Made by a program: the position numbers and the translations under genes
Shown: positions 2,150 to 7,380 of the stretch, in pieces
How positions within the stretch are numbered: position 1 is the first letter of the stretch
Layout of the letters: every line of letters starts with the position of its first letter
Notes under the pieces: model-generated
What the model saw: the letters and a program-made list of their open reading frames with translations, nothing else
Told to the model about the DNA's origin: nothing
Databases searched by the model: none
Source: a virus
Taxonomy: Duplodnaviria; Caudoviricetes
DNA length: 27,608 bases
Reading direction: 5' to 3' (one strand)
IMG/VR virus record: IMGVR_UViG_3300006029_000060
Span: 1 to 27,608 of that record

Positions 2150-2314
2150 GTGAGTGATTTTAAGCTTTATATTGCTAATACCTTAGTGATGATGATAACT
2201 ATGTCAGACATAGAGGTCATACTTAAGATACTCTTATTAGTTGTTACAATAGGTTACACTGCTTTTAAGTGGTTGGCTGTTGTTAAAAAATACAGGGATG
2301 AAAAAAATAAGTGA
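2150..2314 (+). CDS. Small membrane protein, putative holin (not in ORF track)
   Basis: GTG at 2150 to TGA at 2312-2314 encodes MSDFKLYIANTLVMMITMSDIEVILKILLLVVTIGYTAFKWLAVVKKYRDEKNK (54 aa). It has 1-2 hydrophobic helices and a charged C-terminal tail, fills the gap between genes, and overlaps the endolysin start. Confidence 0.7.
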   Translation: MSDFKLYIANTLVMMITMSDIEVILKILLLVVTIGYTAFKWLAVVKKYRDEKNK

Positions 2315-2759
2315 ACATATATCATATAAGGAGGCAGTCAGAAGTGACACAGCGGATAGATTAAACATAATTAACCTCCCTAACGAGTCCGAATTGGATA
2401 ATATGAGTACTATATCAGAAAAGATATTTGAGCCTCTTAGAAGTCACGTAGGAGGCCCTATACGCATTAATAGCTTCTTTCGTTCAGTTGAATTAAACAA
2501 AGCTATTGGGGGAAGCTCTACTTCGCAGCACTGCAAGGGACAAGCTTTTGATTTAGATGACTCATATGGATGCATGACTAATGCTGAGATGTATAAGTTT
2601 GTAAAAGATAACTTAGACTTTGATCAGATGATATGGGAATTTGGCGATAATGAAAATCCTAATTGGATACACATATCTTACGTTTCTCAAGAGAAGAATA
2701 GGAATAGATGCCTAAAGGCTTGGAAGGAACATGGTAGGACTAGATATACAATAATATAA
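2298..2759 (+). CDS. Peptidase M15 family (Zn-dependent peptidoglycan peptidase), probable endolysin
   Basis: Motifs INSFFRS..LN..IGG...SQH..GQAFD and WIHISY provide the M15 H/D/H zinc ligands. ATG 2298 is preferred over the track's 2280 start. Confidence 0.88.
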   Translation: MKKISEHISYKEAVRSDTADRLNIINLPNESELDNMSTISEKIFEPLRSHVGGPIRINSFFRSVELNKAIGGSSTSQHCKGQAFDLDDSYGCMTNAEMYKFVKDNLDFDQMIWEFGDNENPNWIHISYVSQEKNRNRCLKAWKEHGRTRYTII

Positions 2760-3038: not shown

Positions 3039-3389
3039 ATGGCGTTCAAACTATCTAACCCCCCATATAACAGTGAGCCGACTCCAGTCTATCAAGCAGA
3101 ATTGGGGCCTGGCGTTCTTGGGCAAAGTAATAACAACGGCACTATCATAATAAATGAGAAGCTAGACCCTAAGTTTCACGATGAGGTTATTAGACACGAA
3201 GAAGTCCACATAAATCAAATGTCACGAGGCGACTTAGATTATGATGATAGCAACATTTATTGGAAGGGTAAGAAGTACTCAAAGAATAATCCTAAGATAG
3301 CTATGGCAAGTCCATCTAATTCTCCTTGGGAGAAAGAGGCTTATAAGAAATCTAAGACTAAATATAAAGATAAAAAATACAATGTCTAA
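3039..3389 (+). CDS. Small zincin-like metallopeptidase (HExxH)
   Basis: G.IIIN strand followed by VIRHEEVHINQ (HExxH), then PWEKEAY supplying a probable third-ligand Glu. Confidence 0.75.
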   Translation: MAFKLSNPPYNSEPTPVYQAELGPGVLGQSNNNGTIIINEKLDPKFHDEVIRHEEVHINQMSRGDLDYDDSNIYWKGKKYSKNNPKIAMASPSNSPWEKEAYKKSKTKYKDKKYNV

Positions 3390-3825
3390 AAAATTCAAAG
3401 AAACAAAACTTGGTATTTTCTTAGGGAATACTGCCCCCCATATACTAGAAATAGCTGGGGACTTTTTGCCAGACGCAGGGGTGTTAGGTATGGTTAAGAA
3501 CCTTATTGAAAAGGATGAAAAGATTAAGCCCGAAGATAGGAAGGTAGCACTAGCTCAAACAAAAGAAATGTATGAGTTAGAAGTAAAGGATAGAGAATCT
3601 GCTAGAAATAGAGAGGTTGAAGTTAAAAAGGCAGGTGGAAAAGATACTATGATGATGCTTACAGGTATCGTTGGGTTAGCTTCTTTCTTATTTATCATAT
3701 ACGCAGTAGTTTACGAGGAAGGAGTTTTACATAATGAACTCTTTGTACATTTAATGGGTATGGTTGAAGGAGTAGTAATTTCAAACATATTTGCCTATTA
3801 TTATGGGACTTCAGCAGAAAAATAA
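3382..3825 (+). CDS. Holin-like membrane protein with two C-terminal TM helices
   Basis: Amphipathic N-terminus, DRESARNRE linker, then hydrophobic MMMLTGIVGLASFLFIIYAVVY and LFVHLMGMVEGVVISNIFAYYYG. It lies close to the endolysin. Confidence 0.65.
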   Translation: MSKKFKETKLGIFLGNTAPHILEIAGDFLPDAGVLGMVKNLIEKDEKIKPEDRKVALAQTKEMYELEVKDRESARNREVEVKKAGGKDTMMMLTGIVGLASFLFIIYAVVYEEGVLHNELFVHLMGMVEGVVISNIFAYYYGTSAEK

Positions 3826-4113: not shown

Positions 4114-4340
4114 TGAGTAGTGTTATAAGAAAAATCAGTATAGGGTCTGATTATAAAAATGATGCGATGCACTACTCCGTTGGACAACAGGTGTATGGTG
4201 GTCATGAAATATCTGATATTCTCTTTGATGAGAAAGATAGTTCTTATAACATATACATAAAGAAAGGTGATGAGATCTTGCCTTGGAAAAAGTTCAATAG
4301 TAATATGGCTATTTCAGTCGAATACGACTTGCAGTATTAA
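4113..4340 (+). CDS. Small beta-rich hypothetical protein
   Basis: 75 aa, translationally coupled (TAATG) at both ends. Confidence 0.75.
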   Translation: MSSVIRKISIGSDYKNDAMHYSVGQQVYGGHEISDILFDEKDSSYNIYIKKGDEILPWKKFNSNMAISVEYDLQY

Positions 4341-4936
4341 TGAAAAGTATCCACGATTTTATCGTAAAACCCATCGAGGGTCGATACAACAATACTGTTA
4401 AGGTTGACGATGTTGACCTCATTATAAATACAAGAATTGAGGAATTTAAAAGTGTAAGCAAGGTGGCAGAAGTTGTCGCTTTGCCTTTATCTATAAAAAC
4501 TGACATTAAAGTTGGAGATAAAGTAGTAGTACACCATAACGTATTCAGAAGATTCTATGACATTAGAGGCAACGAAAAAAACAGTAGAAGTTTTATTAAA
4601 GAAGATATGTATGCTTGCTCACCTGAGCAAATTTATATGTATGGAGCAAATAAGGCTCATCTGGATTATTGTTTTGTAAAACCTTTAGTAAGCCATGACA
4701 TTTTCTCTTTAGATAGAGAGAAGCCTCTTGTGGGATTGTTAAAGCACGGAAACAAAGGTCTTGAGGAAATGGGTATAAACGAAGAGGATTTAGTGTCCTT
4801 CAGGCCAACGTCAGAATTTGAGTTTATCATTGATGGTGAACTATTATATTGTATGAAATTAATTAACATTGTTGCGAAACATGGACGTAAAGGAAACGAA
4901 GAGGAATATAATCCAAGCTGGGCAAAGAGCAGTTGA
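4340..4936 (+). CDS. GroES/cpn10-like protein, apparently two tandem GroES-like domains
   Basis: First half: FIVKP...AEVVALP...DIKVGDKVVV. Second half: YCFVKPL...EKPLVG...GINEEDLVSF....EFIIDGELLYCM...I. Both follow the GroES strand pattern. Confidence 0.65.
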   Translation: MKSIHDFIVKPIEGRYNNTVKVDDVDLIINTRIEEFKSVSKVAEVVALPLSIKTDIKVGDKVVVHHNVFRRFYDIRGNEKNSRSFIKEDMYACSPEQIYMYGANKAHLDYCFVKPLVSHDIFSLDREKPLVGLLKHGNKGLEEMGINEEDLVSFRPTSEFEFIIDGELLYCMKLINIVAKHGRKGNEEEYNPSWAKSS

Positions 4937-5165
4937 GGAATTAATAAAGGTTGCTAAAGAGGCCATTGTTGATTCAGACGATGACTTAACAGCGGACAAA
5001 TTAAAGAATGCTGCAGCAACTAAAAAGCTAGCAATATTTGACGCCTTTGAAATTCTAAACAGGATTGAGCAGGAGGAAGAGATGTTAGAGGATAAGCCTA
5101 AAGACGACACTAAGAAGAAGAGTGAGTTTAAAGGGTTCGCAGAAGGTAGAGCTAAATTCAGTTAA
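4881..5165 (+). CDS. Probable terminase small subunit
   Basis: 94-aa helical protein (ATG 4881) ending 1 nt before the terL start. The call is positional inference only. Confidence 0.5.
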   Translation: MDVKETKRNIIQAGQRAVEELIKVAKEAIVDSDDDLTADKLKNAAATKKLAIFDAFEILNRIEQEEEMLEDKPKDDTKKKSEFKGFAEGRAKFS

Positions 5166-5166
5166 T

Positions 5167-7380
5167 ATGTACGAACAGACACTATATAAAGTACTGGACA
5201 ACTACATAAAGGCATCTACAATAAAAAAGAAGAACAGGCACAAGTCCTGGAAGTACGGTTATGATGCAGATCATGACATGGTCATTATAAGTAAAACTGG
5301 TAAGATAGGAGAGATTTACGAAATACAAAATCTCAAGATAGCTTTACCTGCTGAATTTGAAATTCAAAACTTTAAAGGCCAGCGATGGGTTAACACAGAA
5401 TACCCTAAGGAATTAAGTAGAATAAAAACAATATTTGATTGGAAGGACTATCCTGAAGATTTTAAAGAAGAATGGTACGATTACATTGAAAAAGAATTTG
5501 AAAGAAGGGAACAAGGATTTTGGTTTAATAATAAGGGTAACCCTACTTACATTACTGGCACTCATTATATGTACTTGCAATGGTCAAAGATTGATGTTGG
5601 TCCACCAGACTTTAGAGAAGCAAACAGATTGTTTTATATATTCTGGGAAGCCTGCAAAGCCGATTATAGATGTTTTGGAATGGACTACCTTAAAAACAGA
5701 CGGAGTGGATTTTCGTTCATGTCATCTGGAGAAATTGTCAACCTTGCAACCATGTCTACTGACTCTAGATACGGCATACTTTCAAAGTCAGGGCCTGATG
5801 CAAAAAAAATGTTTACCGACAAGGTTGTACCAATATCAGTCAATTATCCGTTCTTCTTCAAACCCATCCAAGATGGTATGGATAGACCGAAAACAGAATT
5901 GGCATATAGAGTCCCTGCTTCAAAACTTACAAGGAGGAAACTTGACGCTAATGAGAACCCAGAGGATCTCAAAGGATTGGATACTACGATTGACTGGAAA
6001 AATACAGGTGACAACTCCTATGATGGAGAAAAATTAAAGTTACTTGTACACGATGAATCTGGTAAGTGGGAAAGACCTAACAACATACTTAATAACTGGA
6101 GGGTAACAAAAACTTGTCTTAGATTAGGTAGCAGAATTATTGGAAAGTGTATGATGGGTTCAACATCAAATGCTTTAGATAAGGGAGGTGACAACTTTAA
6201 AAAACTATATTATGCATCAGACGTTACAAGGAGAAACAGCAATGGACAGACTGCTTCAGGATTATATTCTTTGTTCATACCTATGGAATGGAACTACGAG
6301 GGATACATTGATTCTTATGGACTACCTGTATTCGATACTCCCGAAGAACCAATCGAAGATCAGTATGGAATACCGATAACAACAGGTGTAATAGATTACT
6401 GGAATAACGAAGTAGCTGGTTTAAAAGAAGATCAGGACGGCTTAAATGAATTTTACAGACAGTTTCCTAGAACAGAACAGCACGCATTTAGGGATGAGGC
6501 AAAAGAATCTTTGTTTAACCTAACAAAAATATACCAGCAGATAGATCATAATGAATCTATGGCTGCTAGCACATTGGTTACAAGAGGAAATTTCCAATGG
6601 GAGAATGGTATTAAGGACACAAAAGTAATGTTTATGCCGCACAAGGATGGCAGATTTTACGTTTCTTGGATACCACCTTTGGGTATGCAAAATAGGATTA
6701 TAAATAAAAACGGCACCAATTACCCTGGCAATGAGCATTTAGGGGCTTTTGGATGTGATAGTTATGATATATCTGGTACGGTAGATAGTAGAGGATCTAA
6801 CGGAGCATTGCACGGATTAACTAAGTTTAGTATGGAAGAGGCTCCAAGTAATCATTTCTTTTTAGAATACATTGCAAGACCTCAGACAGCTGAAATATTT
6901 TTTGAAGACGTATTAATGGCTTGCGTATTTTATGGTATGCCAATATTAGCAGAGAATAATAAACCTAGACTTCTATATCATTTTAAGAACAGGGGCTACA
7001 GAGGGTACTCAATGAATAGACCAGACAAAACATATAATAAGTTATCAATTACAGAAAGAGAAATAGGTGGTATTCCTAACTCAAGTCAAGACATTATGCA
7101 GGCACACGCTGCTGCAATAGAAACATATATTGAGGAACTTGTAGGAATTTTAGGTGATGATGAAATGGGGGACGTTTACTTCCAAAGAACTTTAGAGGAT
7201 TGGGCAAGGTTTAATATAAACAATAGGACAAAACACGATGCTTCTATAAGTTCTGGATTAGCTATTATGGCTTGTAACAGAAACAGGTACGCACCAGTAA
7301 ACAAAGTAGTAAGAAAAAATATAAATCTAGGATTGAAGAGATACGACAACTCTGGAAGTTATTCAAAAATAATAAATTAA
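5167..7380 (+). CDS. terL: Terminase large subunit
   Basis: Walker A-like LKNRRSGFS, Walker B LLVHDESGKW, coupling motif MMGSTSN, and RNase H-like nuclease motifs FGCDSYD...HDASISSGLA. It precedes the portal gene. ATG 5167 is preferred. Confidence 0.93.
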   Translation: MYEQTLYKVLDNYIKASTIKKKNRHKSWKYGYDADHDMVIISKTGKIGEIYEIQNLKIALPAEFEIQNFKGQRWVNTEYPKELSRIKTIFDWKDYPEDFKEEWYDYIEKEFERREQGFWFNNKGNPTYITGTHYMYLQWSKIDVGPPDFREANRLFYIFWEACKADYRCFGMDYLKNRRSGFSFMSSGEIVNLATMSTDSRYGILSKSGPDAKKMFTDKVVPISVNYPFFFKPIQDGMDRPKTELAYRVPASKLTRRKLDANENPEDLKGLDTTIDWKNTGDNSYDGEKLKLLVHDESGKWERPNNILNNWRVTKTCLRLGSRIIGKCMMGSTSNALDKGGDNFKKLYYASDVTRRNSNGQTASGLYSLFIPMEWNYEGYIDSYGLPVFDTPEEPIEDQYGIPITTGVIDYWNNEVAGLKEDQDGLNEFYRQFPRTEQHAFRDEAKESLFNLTKIYQQIDHNESMAASTLVTRGNFQWENGIKDTKVMFMPHKDGRFYVSWIPPLGMQNRIINKNGTNYPGNEHLGAFGCDSYDISGTVDSRGSNGALHGLTKFSMEEAPSNHFFLEYIARPQTAEIFFEDVLMACVFYGMPILAENNKPRLLYHFKNRGYRGYSMNRPDKTYNKLSITEREIGGIPNSSQDIMQAHAAAIETYIEELVGILGDDEMGDVYFQRTLEDWARFNINNRTKHDASISSGLAIMACNRNRYAPVNKVVRKNINLGLKRYDNSGSYSKIIN
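5435..6037 (+). CDS. Candidate overlapping gene nested in terL (+1 frame): signal-peptide/lipoprotein-like or membrane-anchored protein
   Basis: 203 stop-free codons (5426-6034). A hydrophobic stretch FGLIIRVTLLTLLALII is followed by CTC. terL avoids synonymous NTA codons before purines across this span. Possible TTG starts are 5435, 5486 and 5498. Confidence 0.45.
   Translation: MIGRTILKILKKNGTITLKKNLKEGNKDFGLIIRVTLLTLLALIICTCNGQRLMLVHQTLEKQTDCFIYSGKPAKPIIDVLEWTTLKTDGVDFRSCHLEKLSTLQPCLLTLDTAYFQSQGLMQKKCLPTRLYQYQSIIRSSSNPSKMVWIDRKQNWHIESLLQNLQGGNLTLMRTQRISKDWILRLTGKIQVTTPMMEKN

Follow-up and report, generated by a model that had tools for sequence, protein, structure and literature searches.

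The lipoprotein Llp of bacteriophage T5, the product of a standalone gene, is reportedly a small protein of the inner leaflet of the outer membrane that binds FhuA. An out-of-frame gene within another phage gene is known from bacteriophage lambda, where Rz1 lies inside Rz and forms an embedded two-component spanin (PMC6139136, Kongari et al. 2018); the same source gives the lipobox consensus as [LVI][ASTVI][GAS]C. Phage phiKT, which lacks spanins, encodes the disruptin gp28, a 56-aa cationic amphipathic helix (bioRxiv 10.1101/515445). Viral genes born de novo by overprinting have been described as having a new frame confined to a subclade and a shifted codon usage (PMC3744397). For flavophages, the part of PMC8776804 covered here lists u-spanins for some phages but not for Calle, a member of the Pervagoviridae, and the word "overlap" was not found in it.

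The window, by which we mean the whole 27.6 kb stretch of DNA analysed here, is a whole virus record that carries genes for an M15 endolysin, a GroES-like protein, TerL, a portal protein and structural proteins in the same order as in Elemovirus. Judged by TerL, which is 64.9% identical to that of MW202828, the nearest cultured relatives are Elemovirus (44.5%) and then Cellulophaga phages (36–37%), and this kinship together with the gene order leads us to infer a host among the Bacteroidota. Host assignment through MAG membership was also tried and was rejected as inconsistent, the contigs looking like mis-binned phage, and a PDB search with TerL returned nothing useful. A GTG at 5122 is an alternative terL start. 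Immediately 5' of terL lies a conserved 94-aa ORF (4881–5165), probably terS; Elemovirus has a single 876-aa terminase ORF across the equivalent span, which suggests a fusion there. The GroES-like gene (198 aa, 4340–4936) is conserved just 5' of the terminase genes, and relatives additionally carry a groEL/groES pair farther upstream. What we take to be the Walker A-like motif of TerL (5692–5715, + strand) lies beneath the nested frame described below, and what is presumably the Walker B-like motif (6040–6057) lies just past its end.

Table 1. Positions in the window of terL, the nested frame and its parts, and the lysis genes
Feature	Position	Strand	Remarks
Endolysin (peptidase M15)	2280..2759	+	phrog_894, PF08291
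Holin-like membrane protein	3382..3825	+	Role suggested by hydrophobic segment and distribution; present in open and closed relatives alike
terL, terminase large subunit, 737 aa	5167..7380	+	phrog_6681, E 6e-163; host frame of the nested frame
Nested +1 reading frame, 203 codons stop to stop	5426..6037	+	Over TerL codons 87–290
Candidate TTG starts 5435, 5486, 5498	5435..5500	+	Precursors of 200, 183 or 179 aa
h-region of predicted signal peptide	5528..5569	+	TerL codons 121–134
C-T-C-N-G motif	5570..5584	+	Cys at 5576 (codon 137), predicted lipidated residue
Predicted mature chain, 153 aa, hydrophilic	5576..6034	+	No transmembrane segment, no confident fold

The original prediction, made from the letters of the window, placed a hidden gene in the +1 frame of terL, and recomputation returned the same 203-codon stop-free interval, 5426–6037, closed by a stop codon at 6035–6037. 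The accompanying hand count was exact: NTA makes up 0 of 16 Ile, Leu and Val codons that precede a purine and 5 of 10 that precede a pyrimidine, and in the rest of the window NTA is, as had been claimed, common before purines (515/993, with 219/442 before pyrimidines). The longest other +1 run among the 23 genes of the window is 74 codons, versus 203 in terL. Runs of at least 203 codons anywhere in terL were obtained in 0 of 20,000 synonymous resamplings and 0 of 20,000 within-gene codon permutations, so that the shuffling proposed as a check reproduced no run of this class under either null; a window-wide null also gave 0 of 2,000, and the two results together answer the objection that the interval had been chosen post hoc. 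A search for an antisense gene found no reverse run of 60 codons within the nested span. A second +1 run in terL, of 66 codons, occupies 6179–6379; in many homologs with a closed nested frame the longest +1 run likewise begins at TerL codon 337, and this run may merely reflect few stop-capable sites.

Conservation of the frame was scored over TerL codons 110–244 in the best 80 terL loci from viral contigs together with the window. The frame is open in 57 of 81 sequences including the window, or 56 of 80 after removal of one copy identical to it, against 0.052 of 80 expected from the codon usage of each sequence. Scattered +1 stops, which had been named as evidence against the gene, do occur in the closed minority (mean of 4.75 in the 24 closed homologs of this sample, 5.84 expected), but the majority of homologs stay open. 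In a second collection of 75 loci, reduced to 60 by removing 13 partial and 2 duplicate ones, 34 are open and 24 of the 26 closed loci carry at least 3 stops; the state of the frame is therefore two-valued. The avoidance is specific to stops, since the proportion of NTA before pyrimidines stays at 0.61.

Elemovirus, MW202828 and the scored relatives at 36–49% identity are closed, so that the ancestral TerL frame is more widespread than the open nested frame; at the level of sequence, frame conservation and this distribution mark the nested frame as very probably a de novo overprinted gene. In TerL trees calculated from the sequence beyond the overlap, open loci are interspersed with closed ones, with 18 changes of state among 263 rows, at least 12 of which are forced by well-supported branches. 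Repeated loss, or recombination, is the simplest reading of this pattern on trees whose root is insecure. Three loci (L073, L188 and L190) have an open frame and the same type of signal as the window (type A, below) in a terL at 68–74% identity; the C-terminal tree puts L073 and L188 beside the closed sequences, recombination being a possible cause, and a type-A signal is thereby placed outside the A clade.

A profile search with the nested product matched 153 clusters; the 26 viewed were judged by eye to be terL +1 products or frameshift chimeras, with no standalone homolog outside terL among them. Pfam and PHROGs gave only weak single-member matches for 54 type-A products and NCBIfam gave none for the nested products, leaving no family of these three collections common to the members; in the ESM Atlas the best score was 0.88, to clusters without a name, with nothing usable for type B. 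Two clusters (P0102 and P0108) hold +1 products of 150–180 aa, without an h-region, from a more distant terL lineage, and a locus scan for this product returned only type-A loci. No description of the nested gene was found in the openly accessible main texts and abstracts searched.

The product begins with a predicted signal peptide. In the first sample, Leu occurs in the +1 frame at codon 130 in 55 of 55 open and 7 of 24 closed sequences and at codon 132 in 54/55 versus 12/24; hydropathy of the h-region averages 2.12 in open and 0.90 in closed frames, and the mean charge of the n-region is +2.3 and +1.6, respectively. Thr136 (53/55 versus 9/24) and Cys137 (52/55 versus 9/24) follow in this first, unbiased sample, Cys137 recurring in 29 of 30 open and 13 of 26 closed loci of the second collection; the pooled counts for Cys137 (136/141 versus 40/98) are inflated, as one scan used the motif as its pattern. 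None of Leu130, Thr136 and Cys137 is required for stop avoidance. At codon 137, TTG or CTG is used in 52 of 55 sequences and CTC in none, although CTC, which would give Ser, is available and is used elsewhere in the span; Cys137 thus appears to be specifically selected over an equally available Ser. The earlier translation, with Cys at 5570 and 5576 and six Cys in total (four of them after Cys137), was right, but the emphasis on both residues was only half borne out: the Cys at 5576 bears this mark of selection, whereas those at 5570 (Cys135), 5720, 5753 and 5810 are forced by TerL Met codons. A Cys-rich domain was rejected, as 4 of the 6 Cys are forced in this way. Constraint on synonymous sites, another proposed check, was found in one part of the frame: across 33 independent close type-A pairs, the TerL-synonymous difference is 0.192 in the signal and 0.233 outside but 0.305 under the mature part, and in 11 closed pairs the signal gives 0.299 versus 0.240 outside.

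Nine of the viewed products from the profile search had another N-terminus, and their loci form a single clade (type B; 48 rows, support 94 and 98). In these loci an h-region lies at codons 104–118, about 16 codons upstream of the type-A position (hydropathy 2.23, versus about 0.2 in type A and closed sequences), and is followed by I/T-G-S-C with Cys at codon 121; the type-A h-region is hydrophilic (0.12) and Cys137 is absent in 58 of 58. The TerL amino acids themselves differ in type B beneath its h-region. Counts at codons 114–122 are circular for this clade, the scan pattern having covered them; evidence free of this circularity comes from the ATG, from codons 104–113, from the disappearance of the type-A signal, from the nine seed proteins and from the 4 type-B loci that the unbiased collection contains. 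The grouping of A and B has a support of 81, which fits one origin followed by a shift, the alternative being two origins.

These two placements of a start, an h-region and a Cys within one frame are the best evidence that the product is a lipoprotein, which on the strength of its sequence it probably is. A protein exported without lipidation, either cleaved by signal peptidase I or anchored in the inner membrane, and serving another envelope role such as lysis timing, is improbable, though several features suit it. The type-A lipobox (T/I/L-C-T-C, I-C-T-C in the window) is off consensus at −2 and −1, TerL permitting only T or I at type-A −1; the type-B one is off at −2, with Leu at −1 in 10 of 58. 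Small residues round both motifs (T-C-S-G and G-S-C-A) can also be read as signal peptidase I sites, and Cys121 in type B may partly stem from avoiding TGA after TerL Met121. The preference for Cys over Ser at codon 137, and the retention in either clade of a Cys immediately behind that clade's h-region, argue instead for lipidation.

Some start codon precedes the signal in 141/141 type-A and 57/58 type-B loci, versus 35/98 closed ones. In type B it is an ATG in 57 of 58, mostly at codon 90 and in a context like that of real genes. The proposed check for a conserved start gave a mixed answer among type-A relatives: 129 of 141 have an ATG, but TTG supplies the only candidates before the h-region in the window and in 5 of its 6 closest relatives, all three TTGs being present in all seven. 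The TTG at 5486 favoured in the original prediction is present, but it is one of three and has the lowest context score (−3.8, versus 2.9 at 5435 and 0.3 at 5498; real starts average 2.9 and internal +1 ATGs −2.7). Type-A contexts are weak (best mean −0.6), which suggests low expression. No internal promoter is evident, with six sigma-70-like matches against 4.5 expected, and a Bacteroidetes −7 motif has no match within 4800–6300; translation would therefore proceed from the late terL mRNA. Contigs from two metatranscriptomes cover parts of 5265–6037, but such contigs show neither strand, frame nor level and were given no weight as evidence for the gene.

It is against this background that the possibility of there being no protein has to be weighed, the open frame then being owed to chance, to base composition, to RNA structure or to a frameshifted product. 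The absence of a family match and the weak type-A start context speak for it, yet it is very improbable: the null models fall short by orders of magnitude, GC content beyond the overlap is no higher in open loci (GC3 0.24 and 0.21) than in closed ones (0.32), folding z stays above −1.1 in windows spanning 5317–5976, TerL residues differ in clade B at its h-region, and an N-terminal signal requires a start of its own. The nested frame is, in all likelihood, a real protein-coding gene, as judged from these sequence comparisons. A folding z of −3.1 was noted at 5977–6096, at the end of the nested frame, only 1 of 15 windows falling below −2.

Beyond the signal, the mature chain has little recognisable anatomy. 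Its maximum 19-residue hydropathy is 0.51 in the window and 1.37 and 1.29 in types A and B, with none above 1.6, and a C-terminal transmembrane segment or second hydrophobic stretch was found in 0 of 199 open products. AlphaFold predicts one N-terminal helix and no strands (pLDDT 42, under 50 over most of the chain), which fits a largely disordered chain but is no proof of it, the predicted fold being of too low a quality for structural searching. The composition is enriched in Ser, Pro, Thr and Arg and depleted of Leu, Ile, Val and Phe, third codon positions beneath the mature part taking the composition of codon position 2. The length ranges from 83 to 207 aa, with C-termini between codons 220 and 324; no open product ends before codon 220, partly by the definition of open. 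The close-pair comparison gave no sign of sequence-level purifying selection in the mature part, and few unforced conserved residues are common to A and B, so the mature part appears constrained in length and composition and hardly in sequence. A selected basic tail or cationic peptide was rejected, the net charge per residue being no higher in open products (0.074 and 0.099) than in closed read-through (0.102).

The claim that no spanin-like lipoprotein lies near the lysis genes of the window was borne out. In relatives we looked for u-spanin-like genes, by which we mean standalone genes encoding both a lipobox and, at the C-terminus, a transmembrane segment; they belong to no named family, and the predicted product has a short helix, strands and a terminal helix. 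Among loci with at least 5 kb upstream, such a gene is present in 6/36 closed and 0/57 open ones (Fisher p 0.003, uncorrected for descent), and among 19 of 25 handled records, which are near-whole contigs, in 3/8 closed and 0/11 open ones. Loci fetched by means of u-spanin-like genes and holding the terL region (36 + 4 distinct) are all closed. Two loci, L072 and L152, are secondary losses within the A clade and each has a u-spanin-like gene; the association is confounded by descent, because all but these two carriers belong to the closed clade or the outgroup. Of the four closed genomes with a completeness of 99% or more, three lack both the nested gene and any u-spanin-like gene, so the function is either dispensable or otherwise supplied.

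The suggestion of an overprinted envelope protein therefore stands as regards a selected overprinted gene with an export signal, but its spanin-like part fails, there being no C-terminal transmembrane segment and no consistent i-spanin partner. A true o-spanin, paired with an i-spanin from a distant gene of the same genome, would account for the lipoprotein-type signal and for the +1 embedding, as in Rz1, and a family with an N-terminal transmembrane segment and a coiled coil (i-spanin-like topology), without an adjoining lipoprotein, does occur in 5 type-A and 2 type-B records (examples at L059:942-1367, L330:11424-11708 and L177:838-1155). It is also found in 2 closed loci, however, and in only 3 of 7 near-complete open genomes, with none in the 27.6 kb of the window; as, moreover, the C-terminus varies from codon 220 to 324 and most Cys are forced by TerL, an o-spanin is quite improbable. 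Small standalone lipoproteins of 59–88 aa without a C-terminal anchor were seen in three type-B and two type-A records (L336:13264-13443, L343:548-733, L352:12389-12595, L090:2335-2601 and L091:1552-1818).

The reading we prefer, with somewhat less than even confidence, is that an exported, lipid-anchored and largely unstructured nested product disrupts the outer membrane at lysis and replaces a spanin. Internal initiation on the late terL mRNA would yield the nested product, which would be exported by Sec, lipidated at Cys137 by Lgt and LspA and sorted to the periplasmic face of the outer membrane; there, as a guess, it would build up late in infection, and its long hydrophilic chain would weaken or bridge the envelope after the action of the holin and the M15 endolysin. 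The lack of an inner-membrane anchor in the nested chain counts against a role in lysis, which we hold only tentatively. Ranked second, and rather unlikely, is a lipoprotein of lytic conversion or superinfection exclusion that blocks or masks a receptor from the periplasmic side in the manner of T5 Llp, protecting the infected cell or the progeny. The predicted location, the inner leaflet of the outer membrane, is the one reported for Llp, and both repeated loss (the forced changes of state) and the fast change of the mature part in type-A pairs suit an accessory, arms-race gene. That fast change is, however, roughly what the shifted base composition predicts, the mutual exclusion with u-spanin-like genes is left unexplained, and receptor binding would usually need a defined surface, for which a chain with no fold and few unforced residues conserved between A and B is ill suited.

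Returning to lysis, the most far-reaching version of our preferred reading is that a widespread group of aquatic Bacteroidota phages evolved, de novo and over the terminase ATPase, an unstructured, anchor-less lipoprotein that disrupts the outer membrane and made the u-spanin dispensable, its signal arising twice or moving by 16 codons and TerL residues being reshaped in the process; as a whole this is unlikely, though a role in lysis, if true, would reveal a new way for phages that lack spanins to get through the outer membrane. In any case the locus lets the birth of a gene by overprinting be followed in tailed phages, in a natural series with unusually many replicates and on a gene that is among the most constrained in the genome: in hundreds of sequences the nested frame is open, closed, lengthened or provided with a different signal peptide. 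How a new gene acquires targeting ahead of a fold thereby becomes open to testing. It also means that annotation of a very common group of phages misses a protein and that terL phylogenies are biased by the second frame.

Among the known systems, T5 Llp resembles the nested product in its location, the predicted one here being the inner leaflet of the outer membrane, but no similarity or shared family was detected and Llp reportedly binds a defined receptor, FhuA. As with lambda Rz1, an out-of-frame gene for a predicted outer-membrane lipoprotein lies inside another phage gene; unlike Rz1, its host gene is terL and not an i-spanin gene, it has no consistent partner and no sequence similarity, and its mature chain of 83–207 aa has a variable end. 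The predicted N-terminal lipoylation-type signal is shared with u-spanins of the T1 gp11 type (PMC6139136), and the same step of lysis may be filled, u-spanin-like genes having been seen only in closed-frame relatives; unlike u-spanins as described there, the nested product has periplasmic Cys and neither a C-terminal transmembrane segment nor a beta-rich domain. Measured against the parts of PMC6139136 covered here, it lacks the defining features of both the o-spanin (the host gene) and the u-spanin (the C-terminal anchor). Both it and gp28 of phiKT (bioRxiv 10.1101/515445) are candidates for disrupting the outer membrane on behalf of a phage that has no spanin, but the nested product carries a predicted export signal, has three times the length and shows a charge that is not selected. 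A parallel in origin is with the overprinted viral genes of PMC3744397, in that the older of the two frames is the more widespread one, the new frame is limited to a subclade and codon usage is shifted; in the present case the nested frame overlies the conserved core, the ATPase, of the terminase of a tailed phage, has been repeatedly lost and carries two alternative signals.
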